A stretch of 64,000 bases of DNA from Escherichia coli (lineage in GTDB: Bacteria; Pseudomonadota; Gammaproteobacteria; Enterobacterales; Enterobacteriaceae): assembly GCF_003018115.1 (NCBI RefSeq), contig NZ_CP027457.1; one strand, given 5' to 3'. A model generated the notes under the pieces. It was not told where the DNA came from and did not search any database. It worked only from the letters and a program-made list of their open reading frames with translations. The first letter of the stretch is position 1. Each line of letters starts with the position of its first letter. The translations under genes were made by a program, and so were the position numbers. Shown in pieces: positions 1 to 17,006 of this stretch.

Positions 1-201
1 ATGACCGATGCGCTGTGGTTGACCACACCGTGGACTGATATCTCTGGCGAAGTGGGGCAGATGGATAAGACCACAGTCAAATTTTCGATTCCAATGGATA
101 ACGCCATTTCGCTGCGTACGGTAGATGATAACGGCTGGTTTGGCGAAGTCAGCGCTTCAGGAGAAATTCATGTTCAGGCGACGTGGCGTAACATTAACTA
201 A
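1..201 (+). CDS. ecpD: EcpD fimbrial tip adhesin, C-terminal end (partial, runs off window start)
   Basis: ORF reads into window from upstream; position directly before ecpE in ecp operon order; identity from synteny rather than sequence recognition. Confidence 0.6.
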
Positions 202-880
202 GGCCCTGCTGACAGCGGTCTGTATGCTGGCGGCACCTTTGACACAGGCGATTTCGGTCGGCAATCTGACATTTTCGCTGCCGTCCGAGACTGACTTTGT
301 CAGCAAACGTGTAGTGAATAACAACAAAAGCGCACGGATATACCGTATTGCCATCAGTGCTATTGATAGCCCGGGCAGCAGTGAATTGCGCACCCGACCG
401 GTGGATGGTGAACTGCTTTTCGCCCCCCGCCAGCTGGCGTTGCAGGCTGGTGAGAGCGAGTATTTTAAATTTTACTATCATGGTCCACAGGATAACCGCG
501 AGCGCTACTACCGGGTCTCATTTCGCGAGGTCCCCACTCGTAACCAGACAAGACGCAGCCCAACCGGCGGCGAGGTCAGCACGGAGCCGGTGGTGGTGAT
601 GGATACCATTCTGGTAGTACGACCACGTCAGGTTCAGTTTAAATGGTCCTTCGATCAGGTGACCGGAACGGTAAGTAACACCGGCAACACGTGGTTTAAG
701 CTACTGATTAAACCAGGATGTGATTCGACCGAAGAGGAAGGCGATGCCTGGTATCTACGTCCGGGAGACGTGGTTCATCAGCCTGAGTTACGTCAGCCGG
801 GGAATCATTATCTGGTCTATAACGACAAATTCATTAAGATTAGCGATTCCTGTCCGGCTAAGCCCCCTTCGGCGGACTAA
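170..880 (+). CDS. ecpE: EcpE (YagV) fimbrial chaperone
   Basis: Translation [27 protein letters not shown]... with signal peptide; start chosen at internal Met 170 (overlaps ecpD end), 236 aa. Confidence 0.8.
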
Positions 881-1192
881 GACTTATCCATCGGTCGAGG
901 GAAGAATTCCACTTCAGAGCCCCAAAAATCGTTTAAATGATGTGGAAGCGATCGTCAATATCACCTGTAACGATGGGCTTTCTCATATGCACACCATAGT
1001 GTTCAGGAGACACGGAAAGGTATCAGGCAGCCTGCTAACGAGTGGTTTATTCACGAATTAGTACGTAAAATCGGTAACGGCTGGAAATCATTCAATACTC
1101 ACACTATCGAAAGTTCCCCAGCCAACCGCGGTACGTTCTTACATACGATGTACCGCTGTTCTCTTTACGATTTATAGCTGTACTGGTGAATT

Positions 1193-1522
1193 ATGAGCAA
1201 TCTGAATCCATGCATGACGTGTGGTGCCTGTTGTGCATTTTTCCGCGTCTCTTTTTACTGGGCCGAAGCCGACGATGCTGGTGGTACCATTCCCGCCAGG
1301 CTCACTGAACAAATATCCCCTTTTCACCGATGCATGAGCGGAACTAATCAGAAAAACCCCCGATGTATTGCCCTTGCAGGAACCCCGGGCAAAAATGCCT
1401 GCTGCACGATATATAAAAATCGATCGTCCACATGCAGAGAATTCGCCATGTCTGGTGAGAACGGAGTCGTCAATGAGGCTTGCAATCGTGCAAGGGCTAA
1501 ATACGGGCTGACACCGTTATAA
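1193..1522 (+). CDS. ykgJ: YkgJ family cysteine-cluster protein
   Basis: 109 aa, Cys-rich N-terminus [17 protein letters not shown]; synteny between ecpE and yagU. Confidence 0.8.
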
Positions 1523-1545
1523 ACATACAATAATTAATTGCACTG

Positions 1546-1578
1546 CCCCGCCTACTGTAATAGCGGGGCTTCGTTTTC
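1546..1578 (+). terminator. rho-independent terminator after ykgJ
   Basis: GC stem ccccgc...gcgggg followed by cttcgttttc. Confidence 0.5.
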
Positions 1579-1726
1579 AGGGACAACAAAACCCGAAACT
1601 TATTGTATTTGCCTGCAACAATGCCTCTCTTCTGTAGCGTTCTTCGGATCTACATCATCCTGAAGTAGCACGATATACTCACTGACTATCTGAATCAGAA
1701 TATAAAAAGCAATGTTTTTAACCTAT

Positions 1727-1755
1727 AAAAATGGCGCTGTATTTGCGCCATTTTT
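1727..1755. terminator. bidirectional hairpin between ykgJ and yagU (convergent)
   Basis: Perfect inverted repeat aaaaatggcgc-tgtattt-gcgccattttt flanked by A/T runs on both sides. Confidence 0.55.
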
Positions 1756-1768
1756 ATCATTCAATGCA

Positions 1769-2383
1769 TTATCTGTTTGAGCCTAAAGGGATCTCAGGGT
1801 CTGGCTCATGAGTAATTCTGTTTCGTAAATCTCTGCGAATAATTTCAATGGACCAGAACCAGACTAAATGTCCAAAAATTTCAGAAACATTCTCATACCA
1901 CGGGAGATCAAACAGAGGTGGTGTCAGTCCCATGAGAGGGAATGAAATCATATGAACAAAAAGTTGGGCTAAAGCACCTGCCAGTAAGCCCTGCCAGAGT
2001 TTAATTTTTGGAAATACTTCAGCGACCACACAATAACCGACAGCAAACACTATCGAAAAGATAATGTGCGTAACACCAACCCAGTTAAAGACATGCCCGG
2101 CAAAGGTATAAACAGCCGCATTGGGATCTGTCAGCCCCAGCCAGTCTCGAAGAAAAATATACGGAGGATTGAGAAAATTACGCGAGCAATCAATTTGCCC
2201 AGCAGCCCTGATTAATGATTCCGGGCCACACGCTGCATTAAACATATCCACCGGGCTACGTGGCGGCAATGGAACTTCAGCCCCCCACTTCACAAATGCG
2301 GAAACAACGCCAGCAATCAGCCCAATGAATGCAGCAAGACCATAACGTCTGCGGTTCGGTGGAGTTTGTTCAAATATATTCAT
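1769..2383 (-). CDS. yagU: YagU inner membrane protein (DUF1440)
   Basis: 204 aa hydrophobic protein; synteny next to paoA. Confidence 0.85.
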
Positions 2384-2800
2384 ATCTACCCTGCTTGTAC
2401 CATTATGTTATACACCTCTTCAGGAGTATTCATAAAACAAGGAAAATGTAAAGAACTGTATTGTTTTGTATAACAAGATGGTTGTCTAATCACCAAAGAA
2501 TATAAGCACCATCATTTCTCCCTATTTTTATATTAGAAGTGACATAGATTTGCAGGGTGATGCAGAGCTGACAATCACAGGTTTCCTTATCGGTTTTTGC
2601 ATCGTACAACTAAAGCAATAAAACAGCTCCCATCATCATCAACATCCCGGCGAACATGAATTTATTAGCCGGGCTCATAGCTGCATTCGCGTTTTAAGAA
2701 TAATCCTCCTGCTGTCGCCGACTATGCTTAACGTTTAAAAAAGCATCAGCACTCTCGCAACGCACTCTTATTTTCCCCTTTAGAATACCGGAGGCCTGGT

Positions 2801-3490
2801 ATGAGCAACCAAGGCGAATACCCCGAAGATAATCGGGTTGGGAAGCACGAGCCGCACGATTTTAGTTTGACCCGTCGCGATCTGATTAAAGTGAGCGCCG
2901 CAACGGCGGCGACCGCCGTGGTTTATCCTCATTCTACGCTTGCGGCAAGCGTTCCGGCAGCTACACCCGCGCCTGAGATAATGCCCCTGACACTTAAGGT
3001 GAACGGCAAAACCGAGCAGCTTGAAGTGGATACCCGAACCACGCTACTGGACGCTTTGCGTGAAAATCTGCATTTGATCGGTACCAAGAAAGGTTGCGAT
3101 CACGGACAGTGCGGAGCCTGTACCGTGCTGGTCAATGGTCGCAGGCTTAATGCCTGCCTGACGCTTGCAGTCATGCATCAGGGGGCCGAGATCACCACCA
3201 TTGAAGGCCTGGGTTCACCAGATAATCTTCACCCCATGCAGGCGGCCTTTATCAAGCATGATGGCTTCCAGTGCGGCTACTGTACCTCCGGGCAAATTTG
3301 CTCATCAGTAGCGGTGCTAAAAGAGATTCAGGACGGCATTCCCAGTCACGTCACGGTCGATTTGGTTTCCCCTCCAGAAACAACTGCCGATGAGATCCGT
3401 GAACGTATGAGCGGCAACATCTGTCGCTGTGGTGCATACGCTAACATCCTTGCCGCCATTGAAGACGCTGCGGGGGAGATAAAATCATGA
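2801..3490 (+). CDS. paoA: Aldehyde oxidoreductase 2Fe-2S subunit PaoA, Tat-exported
   Basis: 229 aa; twin-arginine motif TRRDLIK; Cys motifs CDHGQCGAC and CGYC typical of 2Fe-2S ferredoxin subunit. Confidence 0.9.
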
Positions 3491-4443
3491 AGGCGTTTAC
3501 CTATGAACGAGTGAACACCCCGGCCGAGGCGGCACTTAGCGCTCAGCGCGTACCCGGCGCAAAATTTATCGCGGGCGGGACCAATCTGCTGGACCTGATG
3601 AAGCTGGAAATTGAAACGCCCACCCACCTTATCGATGTGAACGGGCTCGGGCTCGATAAGATTGAAGTGACCGACGCGGGTGGGCTGCGCATCGGCGCAC
3701 TGGTACGGAACACCGACCTGGCGGCTCACGAGCGCGTGCGTCGTGATTACGCGGTACTCTCCCGCGCCCTGCTCGCTGGCGCGTCTGGTCAGTTACGCAA
3801 TCAGGCAACCACCGCAGGTAATCTGCTCCAGCGCACGCGCTGCCCCTATTTTTACGACACCAATCAGCCCTGCAATAAGCGCCTGCCCGGGAGCGGCTGC
3901 GCGGCGCTTGAAGGCTTTAGCCGTCAGCACGCGGTGGTAGGCGTAAGCGAAGCCTGCATTGCCACCCATCCGAGCGATATGGCGGTCGCAATGCGGTTGC
4001 TGGATGCGGTGGTGGAAACCATCACGCCGGAGGGAAAGACTCGCAGTATCACACTGGCTGATTTTTATCACCCACCGGGGAAAACGCCGCACATTGAAAC
4101 CGCCCTGCTTCCCGGTGAGCTTATCGTTGCGGTGACGTTACCTCCGCCGCTCGGCGGAAAACATATTTACCGTAAGGTGCGCGATCGCGCCTCCTACGCC
4201 TTTGCCCTGGTATCGGTCGCGGCGATTATTCAGCCTGACGGCAGCGGGCGCGTCGCGCTGGGCGGAGTAGCACATAAGCCCTGGCGCATTGAGGCTGCGG
4301 ATGCTCAGCTATCCCAGGGGGCACAGGCCGTATATGACACGCTGTTCGCCAGCGCCCATCCCACCGCTGAAAACACCTTTAAACTCCTGTTGGCGAAGCG
4401 AACGCTTGCCTCCGTACTGGCTGAAGCGAGGGCACAGGCATGA
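3487..4443 (+). CDS. paoB: Aldehyde oxidoreductase FAD-binding subunit PaoB
   Basis: 318 aa; start overlaps paoA stop (ATGA); FAD-binding molybdopterin dehydrogenase-like. Confidence 0.9.
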
Positions 4444-6638
4444 AATTTGATAAACCCGCAGGGGAAAACCCGATCGATCAGCTGAAGGTTGTCGGTCGTC
4501 CCCATGACCGCATCGACGGACCGCTGAAAACTACCGGCACGGCACGCTACGCCTACGAATGGCATGAAGAGGCCCCCAACGCCGCCTATGGCTATATCGT
4601 CGGTTCCGCCATTGCCAAAGGACGCCTCACCGCCCTTGATACGGACGCCGCGCAAAAAGCGCCGGGCGTACTGGCTGTCATTACCGCCAGTAACGCCGGG
4701 GCACTCGGCAAAGGCGACAAAAACACCGCCAGGCTGTTAGGCGGCCCCACTATTGAGCACTATCATCAGGCCATTGCGCTGGTAGTGGCCGAGACCTTCG
4801 AACAGGCGCGAGCGGCGGCCTCGCTGGTGCAGGCACACTATCGCCGTAATAAAGGAGCTTACTCCCTGGCGGACGAAAAACAGGCCGTCAATCAGCCGCC
4901 GGAAGACACGCCCGACAAAAACGTCGGTGACTTTGACGGGGCTTTCACCTCCGCTGCGGTGAAGATTGATGCTACCTACACGACCCCGGACCAGAGCCAT
5001 ATGGCGATGGAGCCGCATGCCTCGATGGCCGTCTGGGATGGAAATAAGCTTACTCTCTGGACCTCAAATCAGATGATTGACTGGTGCCGCACCGATCTGG
5101 CAAAAACGCTAAAAGTGCCCGTGGAGAATGTGCGTATTATCTCCCCGTATATCGGCGGAGGGTTTGGCGGCAAGCTGTTCCTGAGAAGCGATGCGCTGCT
5201 GGCAGCCCTCGCCGCCCGAGCGGTGAAACGTCCGGTTAAAGTGATGCTCCCCCGCCCCACTATTCCCAATAACACCACGCACCGCCCCGCCACCCTTCAG
5301 CACTTGCGTATCGGTGCCGACCAGAGCGGGAAAATCACCGCTATCTCACATGAAAGCTGGTCCGGAAACCTGCCCGGCGGCACGCCGGAAACGGCGGTAC
5401 AGCAAAGCGAATTACTCTACGCCGGGGCAAACCGTCATACCGGCCTGCGGCTCGCCACGCTTGATTTGCCGGAAGGGAACGCCATGCGTGCGCCCGGCGA
5501 AGCCCCCGGTCTGATGGCGCTCGAAATCGCGATCGACGAACTGGCGGAAAAAGCGGGCATCGATCCCGTCGAGTTTCGCATCCTGAATGACACTCAGGTT
5601 GACCCCGCCGACCCGACGCGCCGCTTCTCTCGCCGTCAGCTTATTGAGTGCTTGCGCACCGGAGCGGATAAATTTGGCTGGAAGCAGCGCAACGCCACAC
5701 CCGGACAGGTACGCGACGGAGAGTGGCTAGTCGGCCACGGCGTCGCGGCGGGCTTTCGCAATAATCTGCTGGAAAAATCGGGGGCTCGGGTTCACCTCGA
5801 ACCAAACGGCACCGTTACCGTGGAAACGGACATGACCGACATTGGCACCGGCAGCTACACCATTCTGGCCCAGACGGCAGCGGAAATGCTTGGCGTACCG
5901 CTGGAGCAGGTTGCGGTTCACCTCGGCGATTCCAGTTTCCCGGTTTCTGCGGGTTCTGGTGGACAATGGGGCGCGAATACCTCCACCTCCGGCGTTTACG
6001 CCGCCTGTGTGAAGCTTCGCGAAATGATTGCCTCGGCAGTCGGGTTTGATCCTGAGCAGTCGCAGTTTGCCGACGGCAAGATTACCAACGGTACCCGAAG
6101 CGCCATGCTACATGAGGCCACCGCAGGCGGCAGACTGACAGCGGAAGAGAGCATTGAATTCGGAACACTGAGCAAGGAGTACCAGCAGTCGACCTTTGCC
6201 GGGCATTTTGTGGAGGTCGGCGTGCATAGCGCGACGGGAGAAGTTCGGGTCCGGCGTATGCTCGCTGTGTGTGCTGCAGGACGCATCCTGAATCCGAAAA
6301 CTGCACGCAGCCAGGTCATTGGCGCAATGACTATGGGCATGGGCGCGGCACTGATGGAGGAGCTGGCGGTGGATGACCGTTTGGGCTACTTCGTTAATCA
6401 CGATATGGTGGGGTATGAGGTGCCGGTCCATGCGGATATCCCAAAACAGGAGGTGATTTTCCTGGATGATACCGACCCCATATCCTCCCCGATGAAGGCC
6501 AAAGGTGTCGGTGAGCTGGGCCTGTGCGGCGTGAGCGCTGCTATCGCCAACGCGGTGTATAACGCCACCGGTATTCGGGTACGCGATTATCCCATCACTC
6601 TGGATAAGCTGCTCGATAAGCTGCCGGATGTGGTTTAA
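4440..6638 (+). CDS. paoC: Aldehyde oxidoreductase molybdopterin-binding large subunit PaoC
   Basis: 732 aa; overlaps paoB stop; xanthine dehydrogenase family large subunit. Confidence 0.9.
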
Positions 6639-6647
6639 GGAGGAACA

Positions 6648-7604
6648 ATGTCATACCCGCTTTTTGATAAAGACGAACACTGGCATAAGCCAGAGCAGGC
6701 GTTTCTCACCGATGACCACCGTACCATTCTGCGCTTCGCCGTAGAGGCGCTAATGTCCGGTAAAGGAGCGGTGCTGGTGACGCTGGTGGAGATACGCGGC
6801 GGTGCGGCGCGCCCGCTCGGGGCGCAGATGGTGGTGCGCGAAGATGGTCGTTACTGCGGTTTTGTCTCTGGCGGCTGCGTGGAGGCCGCTGCCGCTTTTG
6901 AAGCGCTGGAGATGATGGGCTCAGGCCGCGATCGCGAAATTCGCTATGGCGAAGGTTCGCCGTGGTTTGACATCGTTCTGCCCTGCGGCGGTGGGATCAC
7001 GCTGACGCTCCATAAACTACGCTCGGCACAGCCTCTGCTCGCCGTGCTGAACCGCCTGGAACAGAGAAAACCGGCGGGGCTGCGCTACGATCCGCAAGCA
7101 CAATCGTTGGTGTGCCTGCCCACGCAAACCCGAACGGGCTGGAATCTCAATGGCTTTGAGGTGGGGTTCAGGCCATGCGTCAGGCTGATGATTTACGGAC
7201 GTTCTCTTGAGGCGCAGGCAACCGCGAGTCTTGCAGCAGCCACAGGCTATGACAGCCATATCTTCGATCTTTTTCCGGCCTCAGCCAGCGCTCAGATCGA
7301 TACCGACACGGCGGTCATTTTGCTGTGCCATGATCTCAACCGGGAGCTGCCAGTGTTGCAGGCCGCGCGAGAAGCAAAACCCTTTTATCTCGGCGCATTG
7401 GGCAGCTATCGAACCCACACGTTACGTCTGCAAAAGCTCCACGAGCGGGGATGGTCCAGGGAGGAGACAGCGCAAATCCGGGCACCCGTCGGGATATTCC
7501 CCAAAGCCCGGGATGCGCATACTCTGGCACTCTCCGTGCTGGCAGAAGTCGCCTCTGTACGTCTCCATCAGGAGGAGGATTCATGCCTGCCCCCGTCGTG
7601 CTGA
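6648..7604 (+). CDS. paoD: Molybdenum cofactor insertion chaperone PaoD (XdhC family)
   Basis: 318 aa; follows paoC by 9 nt with AGGAGG RBS. Confidence 0.85.
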   Translation: MSYPLFDKDEHWHKPEQAFLTDDHRTILRFAVEALMSGKGAVLVTLVEIRGGAARPLGAQMVVREDGRYCGFVSGGCVEAAAAFEALEMMGSGRDREIRYGEGSPWFDIVLPCGGGITLTLHKLRSAQPLLAVLNRLEQRKPAGLRYDPQAQSLVCLPTQTRTGWNLNGFEVGFRPCVRLMIYGRSLEAQATASLAAATGYDSHIFDLFPASASAQIDTDTAVILLCHDLNRELPVLQAAREAKPFYLGALGSYRTHTLRLQKLHERGWSREETAQIRAPVGIFPKARDAHTLALSVLAEVASVRLHQEEDSCLPPSC

Positions 7605-7663
7605 TCCTTGCGGCCGGGCGTGGAAAGCGCTTTCTCACCTCCGGGGGAAATACCATAAATTAA
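7583..7663 (+). pseudogene. 26-codon N-terminal stub of a MobA/MocA-like nucleotidyltransferase
   Basis: GAGGAGGATTC-ATG then MPAPVVLILAAGRGKRF (LAAGxGxRF motif), stop after 26 codons; overlaps paoD end. Confidence 0.4.
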
Positions 7664-7782
7664 GAGAAAAATCTGCAGTAGCCGTTTTAGAAAATCACCT
7701 AAATCATTTAAAAGAGCGACCTACCCATAGTGGGTGCTCATCGCCTTGTGTAACTTATTCAGCAACGCGCGCCCTCGCCGGA

Positions 7783-8976
7783 CTAAAGCGCACCGGCCTT
7801 CTGGCGTGCGGTAACAAAGGTCAGTACGCCCGCGCAAAGGAGCAGCACACTACTCATGGCAAACGTACTCTGCCAGCCAAGGCGGTCAAACACGATGCCT
7901 CCTGCCGTTGATCCAAGGGCGATTGAGAGCTGAATCACCGCGACCATGAGCCCGCCTCCGGCTTCGGCGTTGTCAGGCAACGTACGCGCAATCCATGTCC
8001 ACCATCCGGTTGGCGCGGCGGTGGCCAGCATGCCCCAGAGTCCTAACAGCAGCGAGACCGTCCAGACGTGATGCCCGGTAAGCATCAGACCGATGGCAAT
8101 GACGGCCATCAGTCCGGGTATGGCCATCAGCGTGGGGTAGAATTTTCTGTTGAGAAATGTCGAAACAACCAGCGTGCCAATAAAACCGGCCACGCCGATA
8201 ATCAGCAAAATCAACGACAAGCCTAAGGAATTAACCCGTGTCACCGACTCCAGAAACGGGCGCACATAGGTGAATAGCGCAAACTGCCCCATGAAAAACA
8301 GGCCACAAGCTATCATGCCGACCACAACCATGCGGCGGCTAAATAAGCGGAATACCGCGCCACATGACGTGTGGCTTTTATTCGCATCCATGCTGGGCAG
8401 ACTAATGCACTGCCAGATAAAGGCGACAACCGCCATGGGCACCAGGCACAAGAAAGCGCCTCGCCATCCGACCGTAGCCCCCAGATAGCTTCCCAGCGGC
8501 GCGGCCACGACCGTCGCCAGCGCATTACCGGCGTTGAAAATCGCCAGCGCACGCGTGACCTGATGCTGCGGCACCAGACGAATCGCCGTTGCCGCTGACA
8601 TCGACCAGAATCCGCCAATGGCCACACCAATCATCGCACGACCGACCATATACATCAGATAACTGGTAGCCAGCGCAATAATAAGCCCCGATACGGCCAT
8701 CAGAACCGTCATCCCCAGCAGCAGGAACTTACGATTCATCTTTCCAGCTAGCGTTGAAAGCGTCAGGCTGGTCAGAACAGCCAGCGCGCCGGAGATAGCA
8801 ATCCCCTGCCCTGCAAGCCCCTCCGTCACGCCTAAATCGCGGGTAATCGGCGTGAGCAGGCTGACGGGCATAAATTCAGAAGCAATCAGCACAAACACGC
8901 ACAGGGTCATAGCAAAAATACCGCCCCAGTATGCGTGCTGATGATGAGGTGATGGTGTTTGGCTTAGTGTCGACAT
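7783..8976 (-). CDS. MFS family transporter (12 TM)
   Basis: 397 aa highly hydrophobic, MFS-like helices and loop motifs. Confidence 0.75.
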   Translation of the reverse strand: MSTLSQTPSPHHQHAYWGGIFAMTLCVFVLIASEFMPVSLLTPITRDLGVTEGLAGQGIAISGALAVLTSLTLSTLAGKMNRKFLLLGMTVLMAVSGLIIALATSYLMYMVGRAMIGVAIGGFWSMSAATAIRLVPQHQVTRALAIFNAGNALATVVAAPLGSYLGATVGWRGAFLCLVPMAVVAFIWQCISLPSMDANKSHTSCGAVFRLFSRRMVVVGMIACGLFFMGQFALFTYVRPFLESVTRVNSLGLSLILLIIGVAGFIGTLVVSTFLNRKFYPTLMAIPGLMAVIAIGLMLTGHHVWTVSLLLGLWGMLATAAPTGWWTWIARTLPDNAEAGGGLMVAVIQLSIALGSTAGGIVFDRLGWQSTFAMSSVLLLCAGVLTFVTARQKAGAL

Positions 8977-10374: not shown

Positions 10375-11259
10375 ATGGCGAAAAGGGAGAACTACAACGA
10401 GCTGTACCTGTTTATGCAGGTGGTGCGGGAAGGCAGCTTTACCGCAGCGGCTCAGCGGCTGGGTCTTGCTCAGTCAGGAGTCAGCCGTTCTGTTCGCGAG
10501 CTTGAAGAAAGGCTGGGTGTCCAGCTGCTAGTGCGCACCACGCGTAAACTGTCGCTGACACAAGCAGGCGAGCAGCTCTACCAGAAGACGGCATCTGGAT
10601 TTGAAATGTTAGATCTTGGGCTTGCCACACTGGCGCACTATCGAGAGACGCCCTCCGGCACGGTGCGTATCAATGCCAGCCAGCACGCGATTGATAAATG
10701 CCTGCTGCCAAAGCTGGCGGTATTTAAACAGCGATATCCTGATATCCGGCTTGAACTGATAAATGAGAGCCGGTTCGTCGATATCATCGAGGAAAGATTC
10801 GATGCAGGTGTCCGCCTGGGGCCTGAAGTCGGCCAGGGTATGGTCGCGGTACGCATCACGCCCGATATGGAGATGGCAATTGTGGGGACTCCGGAACATT
10901 TTCGTCGTTATGGTTTTCCGCAAACCCCGGCGGATTTAAAGGCGCATCCCTGTATCGCCTATCAGTTTGCCGACGGCAGCGTATACCAGTGGGAACTCAA
11001 TCAGGATGATAAAAAAATCACTCATCGCCCTGAAGGGCAATGGGCCCTATCCGACAGCTATATGGAAGCAGAAGCCGCCCGGCTGGGCCTCGGATTGGCC
11101 TATGTTCCTGTTGAACTGGTCGCGGATGATTTAGAACACGGTAACCTTATCAGGGTGTTGCAGCGTTACAGCCTGCGAATGGAGGGATTGTTTCTCTATT
11201 ACCCTCATCGCAACGTCTCCCCCGCTCTGCGGATGGTCATTGATACATTGAAAATCTGA
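10375..11259 (+). CDS. LysR-family transcriptional regulator
   Basis: 294 aa; N-terminal HTH FTAAAQRLGLAQSGVSRSVRELEERLG; divergent from hydrolase-MFS genes. Confidence 0.85.
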   Translation: MAKRENYNELYLFMQVVREGSFTAAAQRLGLAQSGVSRSVRELEERLGVQLLVRTTRKLSLTQAGEQLYQKTASGFEMLDLGLATLAHYRETPSGTVRINASQHAIDKCLLPKLAVFKQRYPDIRLELINESRFVDIIEERFDAGVRLGPEVGQGMVAVRITPDMEMAIVGTPEHFRRYGFPQTPADLKAHPCIAYQFADGSVYQWELNQDDKKITHRPEGQWALSDSYMEAEAARLGLGLAYVPVELVADDLEHGNLIRVLQRYSLRMEGLFLYYPHRNVSPALRMVIDTLKI

Positions 11260-11968
11260 ACGTTAACAACGACCGACTCTTCACTGTGCAATATTGTGTC
11301 AGGTAGTCACTCTGCGTTCAATTCCAGGGGCCGCTTTGAGCGAGAAAGAGCGGACTTATCTGTATAAGGGGACTATCCAGCAATGGAGATCACCCAAAAG
11401 AAAAAACTACCTGGCTCCCTCAACAACCTTCATCCGGGAATTTAGCCTCAATCAACATTTTTATATCTGTCAGGTTACTTCATTATGAAAACCGATCAAT
11501 ATCGTTGTTTTTGTAGTAATAATAGAATACGCGTATTTATTCCTCCATTTCTATTAATAACAGCCATAAACTGTTCACTTCACTGATATTTAAAATATGC
11601 ATCCTTTTCCTGCTTTTCAAGTTGTTCAGCGGCGTAAGAAAACGTATTAAATATGAATTCGACGATTTAACCATTTCTGTCTGATTGGTAATCATCTGTG
11701 ATTAATGCTGGTCTATTGATTACGCCAGCATTAACCGCTTAGGGATGTATTCTTCCTGATCATATACAGCCCTCGAAAAAGAGAGAAAATAAAACTGTGT
11801 CCAATATTACTCTACCACTCCAGACCGAAGCATCGGTAGAATTAGCAGAACGACTGGTACAGAAGGTGGGTATAGCGTCATTTGTCGGGCATTCCATTGC
11901 CATCATAATGATAATTTTGAATCAATAGACGTGCTTCTTGATCATGTCTTAAAATTATACCATGAGCC

Positions 11969-12199
11969 TTATGAAGCATCATTTTTACTGACTGGTGTTA
12001 ACTTTGCTATCATATAAACTCTGTTCTTAAAAAACGCGCCCAGAATTTTATATGATTTCCCTTGTTTTTCTGCCTGTAAAGAAATTTCTTTTTCAGTGCT
12101 GTCAATAGTTGAACCGACGGCAGTAATCGTTTTGGCGACGCTACTGAATGATAATAAAGACAGTGCAACCACAACAATTAAAGAACAGATAGTATTCAT
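11969..12199 (-). CDS. Small secreted protein, DUF1471 (BhsA/McbA/YdgH-like) candidate
   Basis: Signal peptide MNTICSLIVVVALSLLSFSSVA then ~55 aa mature domain; start at internal Met of ORF 11969..12247. Confidence 0.45.
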   Translation of the reverse strand: MNTICSLIVVVALSLLSFSSVAKTITAVGSTIDSTEKEISLQAEKQGKSYKILGAFFKNRVYMIAKLTPVSKNDAS

Positions 12200-12412
12200 G
12201 CTAATTCTCCTGACAATTAAGAGGATGAGTTTTATATATAAAGGCATTAAACATGAGTCATATTTACTTCCTGTGAAAATAATCTTTCTGTAATTAAACC
12301 TTCATCTCCTTCGGGGTGAGCAATACATAATGCATCTTGCTATGAAAAACACAGGGATATATAAATCTTCCTTCTGACCTATTTAATAAAACGTGAATGT
12401 AAAAGTTATTCT

Positions 12413-13135
12413 TCAGTTTGCAGATGCAGTGGGTCTGATGGTAATTTCGGTTGTATCAACGCTTTCGGGAGATTCAATAATATGCCTTACCGCACGGGCA
12501 ATATCCGCAGGTTGAAGTGCAACAGAACGGTAGGAGTCCATTGCCTTCATGGTTTCCACATGGGTAATGGTTGAAGCCAGTTCACTTTCGACAACGCCAG
12601 GATTTACGCAGGTCACACGGATTTTCGAGCTTTCCTGCCGTAAGCCATCAGAAATAGCCCGTACTGCAAATTTTGATGCACAATAGACTGCGCCTGTGGG
12701 CACAACAGAAAGGGCACCAATAGAACCAAGATTGATTATCTGACCGGAACCCTGTGCTTCCATCACCGGAAGTACAGCGCCAATTCCCCACAGTACACCT
12801 TTGATATTCACGTCAATAGTGAGCGCCCATTCATCTTGTTTTCCTGCTGCAAGCGGTGAAAGCGGCATAACGCCCGCATTATTGATAAGAACATCAACTC
12901 GCCCCCAGCTATCCAGCGCTGCTTGCACGAAATCGGCCATGGACTGTCGGTCTGTGACATCCAACTCCCGCGCTTTAGCAATTCCTCCTGCGCGGCAGAT
13001 TTCGGTTGCAATGGCTTCGATACGCTCAACTCTGCGTGCTCCCAGTAAAACCTTTGCACCTGTCGTTCCAAGCTCTCTGGCAATACCTTCCCCAATACCA
13101 CTTGATGCGCCGGTAATTAATATGACCTTATCCAT
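12413..13135 (-). CDS. Short-chain dehydrogenase/reductase (SDR)
   Basis: TGASSGIG NAD(P)-binding motif, YCASK catalytic motif; start at MDKVILITG. Confidence 0.85.
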   Translation of the reverse strand: MDKVILITGASSGIGEGIARELGTTGAKVLLGARRVERIEAIATEICRAGGIAKARELDVTDRQSMADFVQAALDSWGRVDVLINNAGVMPLSPLAAGKQDEWALTIDVNIKGVLWGIGAVLPVMEAQGSGQIINLGSIGALSVVPTGAVYCASKFAVRAISDGLRQESSKIRVTCVNPGVVESELASTITHVETMKAMDSYRSVALQPADIARAVRHIIESPESVDTTEITIRPTASAN

Positions 13136-13233: not shown

Positions 13234-14133
13234 ATGAAAATCGATCTTAATCTTTTACCCATTTTTATCGCGGTAGCAGAAGAGAGTAATTTTAGTAAAG
13301 CCGCCGCACGACTGGGCGTTACCCGTTCAGCGGTCAGTCAGGGAATAAGACGTCTTGAAGATGCATTCGGGACAATGCTTGTAATGCGGACCACGCGCTC
13401 AGTTAATTTGACGGAAGCGGGAGAACGGCTGCATAAATCGTTGTCATTACCTTTATCCGGTATTGAGGCAGCGTTCGAAGAGATGGTCTCTGACCATGTA
13501 CCACGTGGACATCTCAGAATCGCGGTGACGTCGATAGCAGAAGAATTTCTTTCAGGTCCGCTAATCGCTTCGTTTGCAGCTGCCAATCCAGCCGTTACGC
13601 TTGATATTGTTGTCACGGATGAGGAATTCGATATCGTTGCCGCAGGTTACGATGCTGGCGTAAGGCTCGGAGAGGTCATTGAAAAAGACATGATTGCTGT
13701 TCCCCTTACCGGCAGGCAGCGTGAAATGGTCGTTGCCTCTCCCTCCTATCTCGCAGCCAACAGCACACCTGTTCATCCGCGTGAACTTGTGAATCATAAG
13801 TGTATCGGCTGGCGTCAGTCCCCGGAGGTTGCGCCTTATCGCTGGCCATTTGAAGAAAACGGGAGAGCTTTCGACCTTGCGATTGAACCGCAGATTACGA
13901 CTAATGATCTGCGTCTGATGTTGCGGCTGGCTCTTGCCGGTGGAGGAATAACAATTGCCACTCAGGAAACTTTCAGGCCGTATATTGAAAGCGGTAAGCT
14001 TGTATCTCTGCTTGATGACTTTCTTCCACAATTTCCGGGCTTCTATCTGTATTTCCCACAGCGTCGCAATATTGCACCAAAGCTCCGCGCCCTGATTGAC
14101 CACGTCAAGGAATGGCGGCAGCAATTGGCTTAA
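13234..14133 (+). CDS. LysR-family transcriptional regulator (possibly the intact counterpart of K-12 yagP fragment)
   Basis: 299 aa; HTH FSKAAARLGVTRSAVSQGIRRLE; divergent from SDR. Confidence 0.8.
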   Translation: MKIDLNLLPIFIAVAEESNFSKAAARLGVTRSAVSQGIRRLEDAFGTMLVMRTTRSVNLTEAGERLHKSLSLPLSGIEAAFEEMVSDHVPRGHLRIAVTSIAEEFLSGPLIASFAAANPAVTLDIVVTDEEFDIVAAGYDAGVRLGEVIEKDMIAVPLTGRQREMVVASPSYLAANSTPVHPRELVNHKCIGWRQSPEVAPYRWPFEENGRAFDLAIEPQITTNDLRLMLRLALAGGGITIATQETFRPYIESGKLVSLLDDFLPQFPGFYLYFPQRRNIAPKLRALIDHVKEWRQQLA

Positions 14134-14259
14134 ATGTCTGCACCTACATTGCCTGATGTCAGAACAGTATTTTGATTAATTGCCAGGGTTACAATGGCAC
14201 AAATACGGCACAGGAGGAAACGTGGTGTATTTAAATATGGGGTAACTACTTGATTTAAA

Positions 14260-14335
14260 TGGTGCCGATAATAGGAGTCGAACCTACGACCTTCGCATTA
14301 CGAATGCGCTGCTCTACCAACTGAGCTATATCGGC
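14260..14335 (-). tRNA. thrW: tRNA-Thr (anticodon CGU)
   Basis: Reverse complement reads GCCGATATAGCTCAGTTGGTAGAGCAGCGCATTCGTAATGCG...TTCGACTCCTATTATCGGCACCA; cloverleaf with CGT anticodon and CCA end. Confidence 0.9.
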
Positions 14336-14449: not shown

Positions 14450-15703
14450 TTACGCACGAATGGTGTAATCACCAATGCCGATCCACTTGTAAGTGGTCAG
14501 TGCTTCCAGCCCCATTGGGCCACGCGCGTGGAGTTTTTGTGTGCTTACCGCCACTTCCGCGCCCAGTCCAAACTGGCCGCCGTCGGTAAAACGCGTAGAG
14601 GCGTTAACGTAAACAGCGGACGAATCCACTTCGTTAACAAAACGCTGGGCGTTGCGCATATCGCGGGTCAGGATCGCATCGGAGTGTTGCGTGCCGTGTT
14701 CACGAATATGGGCGATGGCATCGTCAAGATCGCTGACGATTTTGACGTTCAAATCTAATGACAGAAACTCATCGTCATACTCTTCGGCTTTAACCGCCAC
14801 CACCTTCGCAGGGCCTGTCTGCAACTGCGCCAGCGCAGCTGCATCTGCGTGTAACGTCACGCCGCTTTCCGCCATTTGTTTGCTTAATGCGGGCAGGAAG
14901 CTATCGGCGATGTTTTTATTCACCAGCAACGTTTCTACCGTATTACATGTGCTCGGACGCTGGGTTTTCGCGTTGACGATCACTTTTAATGCTTCAGCGA
15001 TCTCTGCACTTTCATCAACGTAAATATGGCATACGCCTATACCACCAGTGATCACCGGGATCGTCGACTGCTCGCGGCACAGTTTATGCAAACCAGCCCC
15101 GCCGCGCGGGATCAGCATGTCGATGTATTTATCCATACGCAGCATTTCACTGACCAGCGCACGGTCAGGATTATCAATCGCCTGCACGGCACCCGCCGGT
15201 AAGCCACAGGATTTCAGGGCGTCCTGAATCACCGCCACCGTTGCAGCGTTAGTGCGACACGTTTCTTTGCCGCCGCGCAGGATCACTGCGTTACCTGTTT
15301 TCAGGCACAGCGAAGCGACATCAACCGTCACGTTCGGGCGCGCTTCATAAATCACGCCAATAACCCCCAGCGGTACGCGACGACGCTCAAGACGCAGGCC
15401 GCTGTCCAGTACGCCGCCATCGATTACCTGCCCCACCGGATCGGCGAGGTTGCACACCTGGCGCACATCATCGGCAATGCCTTTCAGCCGTGCGGGCGTC
15501 AGTGCCAGACGGTCAAGCATCGCTTCGCTAAGGCCATTGGCTCGCGCGTCAGCAACATCCTGGGCGTTAGCGTTGAGGATGATTTCGCTTTGTGCTTCCA
15601 GTTCATCGGCGATTTTTTCCAGCACACGATTTTTTTCGCGGCTGGAGAGTTGCGCTAATTTATACGAGGCTTGCTTCGCGGCAATGCCCATTTGTTCCAG
15701 CAT
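14450..15703 (-). CDS. proA: Gamma-glutamyl phosphate reductase
   Basis: 417 aa; [19 protein letters not shown]...; synteny proB-proA-thrW. Confidence 0.95.
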
Positions 15704-15714
15704 CGGCCAGCTCC

Positions 15715-16818
15715 TTAACGGGTAATCATGTCATCACGGTGAACGGCAACCGGGCCGTATTCATATCCCAGTATTGCATCAATTTCTTGCGAGTGGTGCC
15801 CGGCAATACGGCGTAATGCATCGCTGTTGTAACGACTGACGCCGTGGGCGATATCGCGACCTTCGAGGTTGCAAATGCGGATGACTTCACCACGCGAGAA
15901 ATTGCCAGTCACGCTTTTAATGCCTTTCGGCAACAGGGAGCTGCCGCGTTCAAGAATGGCGGCGGTTGCCCCTTCATCTACCGTGATTTCACCCGCAGGC
16001 GGCGCACCGAAAATCCAGCGTTTACGGTTTTCAAGCGGAGTCGCCTGGGCATGGAACAGCGTACCGACGGAAATGCCTTCCATCACATCACCAATGACGC
16101 CCGGCTTGCTGCCCGCGGCAATAATGGTGTCGATACCCGCACGGCAAGCCACGTCCGCGGCCTGCAATTTGGTACTCATGCCGCCAGTTCCGAGGCCTGA
16201 AACGCTGTCACCGGCAATCGCGCGCAGTGCGTCATCAATGCCGTAAACATCTTTAATCAGTTCTGCCTGCGGATTGCTGCGCGGGTCAGCGGTATACAAA
16301 CCTTTTTGATCGGTCAGTAACAACAGTTTATCGGCACCCGCCAGAATCGCCGCCAGCGCAGAAAGGTTGTCGTTATCGCCGACTTTAATCTCTGCCGTAG
16401 CGACAGCATCGTTCTCATTGATTACCGGAACGATATTGTTATCGAGCAACGCACGCAGGGTGTCGCGGGCGTTCAGGAAGCGTTCACGGTCTTCCATATC
16501 AGCACGAGTCAGCAGCATTTGCCCGACGTGAATGCCATAAATCGAAAACAGCTGTTCCCACAGTTGAATCAGTCGACTCTGCCCTACCGCCGCCAGCAGT
16601 TGTTTCGAGGCGATAGTCGCTGGCAGTTCCGGGTAACCCAGGTGCTCACGTCCGGCGGCGATCGCGCCCGACGTCACAATAACAATCCGATGCCCGGCGG
16701 CATGTAACTGCGCGCACTGGCGAACAAGTTCAACGATATGGGCACGGTTCAGGCGGCGCGATCCGCCTGTTAGCACACTGGTGCCGAGTTTTACCACCAG
16801 CGTCTGGCTGTCACTCAT
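15715..16818 (-). CDS. proB: Glutamate 5-kinase
   Basis: Start set at [16 protein letters not shown] (367 aa); ORF extends upstream to 16905 but canonical start is internal. Confidence 0.9.
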
Positions 16819-17006
16819 GATTCTCTGCCATTCAATTTTAGGAAAAATGATATCAAACGAACGTTTTAGCAGGACTGTCGTCGGTTGCCAACCATCTGCG
16901 AGCAAAGCATGGTGTTTTGTTGCGCGGGATCAGCAAGCGTAGCGGCAGTTGTTTACGCTTTCATTACAGATTTAATAAATTACCACATTTTAAGAATATC
17001 ATTAAT

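Follow-up and report, generated by a model that had tools for sequence, protein, structure and literature searches.

The window analysed here (the whole 64,000-nucleotide stretch of Escherichia coli DNA) carries genes of the pao operon, a short open reading frame (ORF) that opens inside the end of paoD and is called the stub below, and a convergent gene for an MFS transporter (Table 1). Bases 7300-8000 are 100% identical to those of E. coli strain F9792, where the RefSeq order is paoA-paoB-paoC-paoD, convergent MFS transporter, alpha/beta hydrolase and LysR regulator. No annotated feature lies on the stub stretch in the RefSeq genomes checked. Farther to the right is an intact tRNA-Thr(CGT) gene, which is probably thrW, a gene known as an island integration site; beyond it are two large ORFs with the sizes and order that we would expect of proA and proB.

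An earlier note on this DNA had described a ribosome-binding site and an ATG within the last codons of paoD, opening a frame of 26 codons, and on re-reading of the sequence both its coordinates and its peptide were exact. The ATG occupies 7583-7585 and the TAA 7661-7663. The paoD stop codon TGA is at 7602-7604, so the last 22 nt of paoD overlap the frame of the stub.

Table 1. Features at the 3' end of the pao operon and in its right-hand flank (positions in the window)
Feature	Position	Strand	Basis or remark
paoC	4440-6638		ORF list
paoD, XdhC-family molybdenum-cofactor insertion chaperone	6648..7604	+	ORF list; Pfam XdhC_CoxI and XdhC_C; RefSeq annotation of the identical region of E. coli F9792
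Shine-Dalgarno-like sequence AGGAGGAGGA	7570..7579	+	3 nt upstream of the ATG of the stub; within the coding part of paoD
Stub ORF	7583..7663	+	26 codons plus TAA, reads MPAPVVLILAAGRGKRFLTSGGNTIN; from the sequence and the ORF list
Actual gene remnant, codons 1-27 (ending ...THKL), allowing for a missing C	7583..7662	+	pairwise and blastn alignments to L001, L089, L091 and L092
Lineage-specific 1-bp deletion, ACCCAT to ACCAT	7653..7655	+	alignment with K-12, B2-type strains and intact orthologues
CATAA microhomology, left copy	7654..7658	+	blastn of K-12 against the window
Truncation junction	7662..7663	.	homology to the intact gene stops after 7662
MFS transporter gene, convergent with the pao operon	7783..8976	-	first gene of the block replacing the rest of the lost gene
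Intact LysR-family regulator gene	13234..14133	+	translations
CATAA microhomology, right copy, inside the LysR-family gene	13795..13799	+	blastn of K-12 against the window
Intact tRNA-Thr(CGT)	14260..14335	-	ARAGORN; right limit of the variable block beside the pao operon

The stub contains a glycine-rich nucleotide-binding loop of the form (L/I/V)xAAGxGxR(F/M), namely VVLILAAGRGKRF at residues 5-17. The complete PF12804 domain (about 160 residues, including the substrate-binding half) is absent, with codons 1-27 alone retained, and a Pfam scan of the bare 26-aa peptide found no NTP-transferase or PF12804 match, even at E <= 10. The sole Pfam match of this peptide, LonC_helical at E 0.03, was judged spurious. 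Because a PF12804 match is missing for the stub alone, it was assigned via its orthologues and not directly, and since the generic Pfam models are silent on 26 residues, its significance rests on a subfamily profile and on synteny rather than on the motif. Promoter and terminator scans of 7400-8000 gave no matches, and the predicted fold of 7655-7790 is unremarkable (z = -1.6).

Intact genes behind paoD in related genomes

We compared 80 loci encoding PaoD relatives, 28 of them from Enterobacterales. An intact ORF of 180-199 aa lies directly 3' of paoD on the same strand in 26 of these 28 loci, in genera including Leclercia, Enterobacter, Franconibacter, Siccibacter, Cedecea, Atlantibacter, Kosakonia, Citrobacter and others, and several Rhizobiaceae loci have the same order of paoD followed by a nucleotidyltransferase gene. 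An example of the N-terminus of these proteins is MPASIVLILAAGRGGRFLTSGGSTHKLAALLNGKP. In three of the genomes (L089, L091 and L092), paoA-B-C-D and an NTP_transf_3 gene form a five-gene layout with the same 22-nt overlap with paoD as in the window, and in a fourth (L001), which also has the intact gene, the ribosome-binding site AGGAGGAGGC is as in the window and stands at the same spacing from the ATG. Since the start of this fifth gene lies within the end of paoD, its translation may be coupled to that of paoD.

The intact orthologues match the Pfam family of MobA-like NTP transferases (PF12804) with 91-125 bits against a cut-off of 27 (E 5e-26 to 3e-36), which agrees with the proposal of the earlier note that a nucleotidyltransferase gene once completed this operon. 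Among NCBIfam models, the proteins of L001 and L067 match TIGR03310 (MocA/YgfJ, molybdenum cofactor cytidylyltransferase) best, and for that of L003 this model is nearly level, at 83.3 bits, with the top match NF045665 (84.0 bits). The TIGR03310 scores of 84.7, 83.3 and 133.8 bits are below the curated cut-off of 186.45, and by the NCBI criterion the proteins are classified as MocA-like but not as equivalogs. Their name in databases is 'nucleotidyltransferase family protein' or, in a few cases, 'CTP:molybdopterin cytidylyltransferase'. Association with a chaperone of the XdhC family and an MCD-type member of the xanthine-oxidase enzyme family was found for the paoD-linked gene in the 26 of 28 Enterobacterales loci. 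From family and context, the most likely activity of the intact orthologues is that of a cytidylyltransferase, transferring CMP to Mo-molybdopterin to give MCD. The dedicated cytidylyltransferase suggested in the earlier note is therefore upheld as to MocA-like family and gene context; the proteins are, however, distant from E. coli MocA and below the TIGR03310 cut-off, and their activity is a prediction.

The stub can be tied to these genes at both the protein and the DNA level. Of its first 24 residues, 22 are identical to those of the closest intact proteins, P0005 and P0008, which begin MPAPVVLILAAGRGERFLTSGGSTHKL and whose genes belong to five-gene clusters of the layout described above, with its 22-nt overlap. 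A profile was built from 26 intact enterobacterial orthologues and searched against all six-frame fragments of the 64-kb window. The stub was the sole match (24.7 bits, E 2.1e-6, profile positions 2-25), and the next best fragment had an E of 1.5; a significant profile match, which the earlier note had asked for, was thus obtained with the orthologue profile. The window DNA is 85-89% identical to that of its four closest relatives, the intact-gene genomes L001, L089, L091 and L092, and this identity is unbroken from paoD to 7659-7662. On this evidence we hold with high confidence that the stub is a real, unannotated and non-functional 5' remnant of the fifth gene of the pao operon, which encoded a MocA-like nucleotidyltransferase of about 184 aa. 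The object is an ordinary decaying pseudogene remnant and not a new system.

The truncation junction and its origin

In the relatives the sequence reads ...ACC CAT AAA TTA GCC... (T H K L A), and in the window it reads ...ACC ATA AAT TAA GAG. The stub ends at the TAA at 7661 after 26 codons because the loss of one C at 7653-7655 shifts the frame. When the missing C is restored, the peptide ends in ...GGNTHKL, the profile score rises to 36.0 bits and the alignment extends to profile position 42; we think that most of this 11-bit gain comes from the restored HKL.

With blastn at word size 9, no match to the intact-gene genomes was found after 7662, and from 7663 on come 120 bp that flank the convergent MFS gene on its 3' side. 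The earlier note had placed a rearrangement near 7664, and the homology does end there, with 7662 as its actual last position. Near 7688-7699 there is a short DNA island, GTTTTAGAAAAT, which resembles L001 and L091; it is not present in L089 or L092, was missed by blastn and was not counted as homology, and any trace of the gene beyond 7662 is unproven. An internal deletion that left the 3' end of the gene in place was rejected, as 7663-7782 resembles neither the 3' end of the intact gene nor the DNA downstream of it. The six-frame profile search found no other fragment of the gene, which excludes an inversion or translocation inside the 64 kb.

The loss is not confined to the window. Across 5,426 complete E. 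coli genomes, what is left of the gene never goes beyond its first 81 nt (codons 1-27), and in no genome is over 15% of the intact sequence covered; the gene loss is therefore species-wide in E. coli. In the history that we propose, the ancestral pao operon would have carried a fifth gene for a MobA/MocA-like nucleotidyltransferase of about 184 aa, starting inside the end of paoD, and its product would have made the MCD cofactor that PaoD inserts into PaoC. Everything after codon 27 would have been lost at 7662/7663 before the sampled E. coli lineages diverged, and the junction now leads into the MFS / hydrolase / LysR block that extends up to tRNA-Thr.

As for the cutting event itself, which the earlier note called a rearrangement, there are two routes: deletion or replacement in place of codons 28-184, or the import of a pao segment that was already cut. 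By the second route the gene was never complete in E. coli, pao having been acquired horizontally with the right recombination endpoint inside the nucleotidyltransferase gene. We regard import as possible but rather unlikely, and under it the object would still be a remnant, differing only in its history. Consistent with import, the pao genes have 58-63% G+C, above the level typical of E. coli (about 51%), and at the DNA level they share 85-89% identity with Enterobacter-like genomes. The cluster also stands beside tRNA-Thr, the DNA on its right side is different in every genus examined, and in Leclercia a 53-bp tRNA-Thr fragment directly follows the intact gene. However, a tRNA scan of 26 related loci found no complete tRNA-Thr after the intact gene, and at the junction itself we saw neither a repeat nor an IS or att sequence. 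There is also no clear break in composition at 7662/7663, the MFS gene on the right having 56-58% G+C, and for this reason the G+C profile does not choose between import and deletion in place.

Cofactor supply with and without the fifth gene

The E. coli operon has been published as the four-gene paoABCD, with paoD as the last gene (PMC3909100), and PaoABC binds MCD (PMC2997495). In E. coli this cofactor is made by MocA, which hands it to PaoD (PMC3909100). The mocA gene was found in 5,169 of the 5,426 E. coli genomes (95%), unlinked to pao; its neighbours in K-12 are yqeB and yqeC, in the xdh / ygf region of purine catabolism. Maturation of PaoABC in E. coli relies on an unlinked and distantly related mocA instead of the lost gene. 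The E. coli operon of four genes appears to have been reduced from a unit of five, which carried a cofactor nucleotidyltransferase of its own, and such a reduction fits the delivery of MCD to PaoD by the unlinked MocA.

E. coli MocA (YgfJ) shares with the paoD-linked proteins the PF12804 domain, an N-terminal xxAAGxxxR(M/F) loop and the best or joint-best NCBIfam match. They differ in sequence and in length: the paoD-linked protein of L001 is 21% identical to E. coli MocA over 115 residues, and in the enterobacterial paoD-linked form the stretch from the N-terminal loop to the core is shorter, with residue 61 joined to model position 74 in the best matched segment. Because of this 21% identity and the TIGR03310 scores below the cut-off, the lost gene is not considered a copy of mocA. 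The stub is no working MocA either, since the window holds only 27 codons. MobA, the molybdopterin guanylyltransferase, belongs to the same fold family as the paoD-linked proteins and gives weak N-terminal profile matches with them. The MobA-type matches, at E 2e-4 to 7e-4 for L001, are far less strong and cover the N-terminal loop only, and PaoABC uses MCD, not the MGD of MobA. The N-terminal specificity motifs are reportedly TAAG in MocA and LAGG in MobA.

It is well known for a MocA-like gene to stand behind the gene of an XdhC-family chaperone, and what lies behind paoD here is the remnant of such a MocA-like gene. Pairs of xdhC and mocA are known as pucA-pucB in Bacillus subtilis, on plasmid pAO1 and in the clusters of Oligotropha carboxidovorans; the MocA-like gene comes after the chaperone gene or shares its transcript, and an MCD-type molybdoenzyme is encoded next to them (PMC2997495). 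The intact units of paoABCD with NTP_transf_3 follow the same logic as these pairs, whereas E. coli has lost the second partner. The proteins P0004, P0005 and P0008 are intact orthologues and candidates for dedicated MCD synthases in a shortened MocA-like subfamily.

Two further readings, even when taken jointly, seem improbable to us. In one, the paoD-linked proteins (about 184 aa) are a distinct and shortened branch within the Moco nucleotidyltransferases, whose specificity or partnership with PaoD may be unlike that of MocA; in the other, the stub is still translated and affects the expression of paoD. If the distinct-branch reading were true, the repeated loss of the gene (in E. coli and in the Rhizobium loci L072 and L075) would mark a shift from an operon-dedicated to a shared cofactor supply. 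As the remnant of a MocA-like gene, the stub adds one small unannotated pseudogene to the annotation and leaves the understanding of Moco biology unchanged.

Decay of the remnant within E. coli

The pao region was matched by 3,598 E. coli genomes, in 912 of which paoD is next to the MFS gene as in the window. Of these 912, 406 match the ACCAT form with its 26 codons (for the most part O157:H7 and its relatives) and 504 the ACCCAT form. Three B2-type strains have the ACCCAT form with a change of TTA to TAA, by which the frame ends after 35 codons (MPASIVLILAAGRGERFLTSGGNTHKLREKSAVAV), and they also have a 3-nt deletion in the ribosome-binding site. In strain PKF4 there is an extra A in the A-run.

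Most of the remaining genomes (about 2,690) match only to 7658, and the sampled ones, including K-12, have a LysR fragment after paoD. In blastn, positions 1-3360 of the K-12 sequence align to 4300-7658 of the window and positions 3356-3872 to 13795-14311, with an overlap of 5 nt, which gives a K-12-type deletion of 6,141 bp between the two copies of CATAA. This deletion brings codons 1-26 of the stub in frame with the last 111 codons of the LysR gene in an ORF of 136 codons, which reads MPAPVVLILAAGRGECFLASGGNTHK up to the fusion point and continues with CIGWRQSPEV.... In the K-12 stub the conserved arginine of the GxGxR loop is also gone (R16C). Since the form in the window still has an intact LysR gene and the TTA found in the orthologues, the K-12 form is the derived one. 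The endpoint of the K-12 deletion is 4-8 nt from the older junction at 7662/7663; this closeness is compatible with chance, since the gap behind paoD in which a deletion has to start if it leaves that gene untouched is about 180 bp long.

Since the truncation, the remnant has taken a different course of decay in each lineage, by the 1-bp deletion in the window and O157:H7, the TTA-to-TAA change in B2-type strains, the extra A in PKF4 and the 6.1-kb deletion in K-12-type genomes. When the stub of the window is aligned with that of a B2-type strain, 8 of 72 positions differ (3 of them amino-acid changes), which is no fewer than in the non-coding flank. Such independent lesions in different lineages, together with a flank-like level of substitution, are the signature by which a neutrally decaying pseudogene would be recognised.

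All E. coli lineages examined have kept the ribosome-binding site, the ATG and the first 24 codons, and this survival could in principle reflect selection rather than too little time for decay. In that case the stub would be a functional short ORF, either a micropeptide or an element of coupling or termination-reinitiation that acts on paoD expression or mRNA stability. The strength of the ribosome-binding site, the overlap of the ATG with the end of paoD and the fact that the same start heads the 136-codon open frame of K-12-type genomes would agree with this. Nevertheless, we consider it very improbable. The C-terminal end varies by lineage (26 aa, 35 aa, frameshifted, or fused to a LysR tail), the substitutions are as frequent as stated above, and K-12 is without the conserved arginine. 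Moreover, the ribosome-binding site is part of the coding sequence of paoD, which is enough to account for its retention, and in the B2-type strains it has the 3-nt deletion; a piece of 24 residues from a Rossmann-like fold cannot form an active site. The stub presumably has no function, and no sign of another role was found. A chance open frame with a motif like a nucleotide-binding loop, for which one could cite the shortness of the peptide, its lack of a Pfam NTP-transferase match when taken alone and the occurrence of GxGxR-type loops in many families, has a practically negligible probability, given a position, 22-nt overlap and start context as in the intact orthologues of L089, L091 and L092, DNA identity of 85-89% continuous with paoD, 22 of 24 residues identical to P0005 and P0008, and the sole profile match in the window at E 2e-6.

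The decayed remnant also bears on the annotation of K-12. The LysR-fragment pseudogene beside paoD, which we take to be 'yagP' (b0282, 136 aa), is covered in the PGAP annotation of K-12 for its LysR part only, as 'LysR substrate-binding domain-containing protein, missing N-terminus', and a literature search on 'yagP' found no account of a chimeric origin. The pseudogene has the same ATG and codons 1-26 as the stub and differs from it by the fused LysR tail, and the remnant explains its start codon and first 26 codons.

Chimeric reading frame beside paoD in K-12

In E. coli K-12 strain MC1061, the ORF beside paoD (L081:3284-3694) is labelled by PGAP as a LysR fragment with a missing N-terminus. 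This ORF is a chimera of the stub, the 5' remnant of a MocA-like nucleotidyltransferase gene after paoD, and a LysR part: codons 1-26, the start codon included, derive from the stub, to which 111 LysR codons were joined in frame by a 6,141-bp CATAA-mediated deletion. Of the 3,598 E. coli genomes with pao, the majority, about 2,690, appear to have this derived form.

Window features of the deletion and the tRNA border
Feature	Window position
CATAA copy of the K-12-type deletion, first	7654-7658
CATAA copy of the K-12-type deletion, second	13795-13799
tRNA-Thr(CGT), intact	14260-14335

In the K-12-like strain E. coli MARGA_4 (L088:1706-2950), ISEc52, of the IS3 family, interrupts paoD towards its 3' end, so that the gene is annotated as two fragments.

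From the stub to the tRNA-Thr gene

Within the block from the stub to the tRNA-Thr gene, window 11200-12600 has a G+C content of 37-40% and looks like foreign or degraded DNA. In E. coli F9792, identical to the window around the stub, the features annotated in this stretch are a hypothetical protein and ykgR as a partial pseudogene. In K-12, an integrase-bearing element (intF, yagN, yagM) comes after the LysR fragment. In the window, the intact tRNA-Thr(CGT) is directly followed by two minus-strand ORFs of 417 and 396 aa (14450-16905), which, judging by their size, are probably proA and proB, and the window strain is therefore without the K-12 element.

A tRNA-Thr attachment site seems to border the pao cluster in more than one genus. 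In Leclercia adecarboxylata, the intact MocA-like gene is directly followed by a 53-bp fragment (L002:6418-6470) that shares 93% identity with a portion of the window tRNA-Thr gene (compared with 14251-14305), and then by phage- or plasmid-like genes; no complete tRNA was found at this fragment by ARAGORN.

The paoD-linked gene outside E. coli

Enterobacterial proteins encoded by the intact paoD-linked MocA-like gene are about 184 aa (e.g. L001:5936-6487), against about 205 aa in rhizobia (L067:5933-6556), a difference of some 20 residues. The shortening falls after the N-terminal loop and before the core: the best stretch matched to the MocA model (TIGR03310) begins at residue 61, aligned with model position 74. 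The enterobacterial proteins may form a distinct, compact subfamily.

The gene is wholly absent from two Erwinia loci (L009 and L016). Independent decay was observed in two Rhizobium loci, one retaining only an N-terminal remnant (L072:5758-6150; profile positions 4-40) and the other containing the gene in pieces, in differing frames and on both strands (L075:5779-6578), thus loss of the paoD-linked gene is recurrent beyond E. coli.
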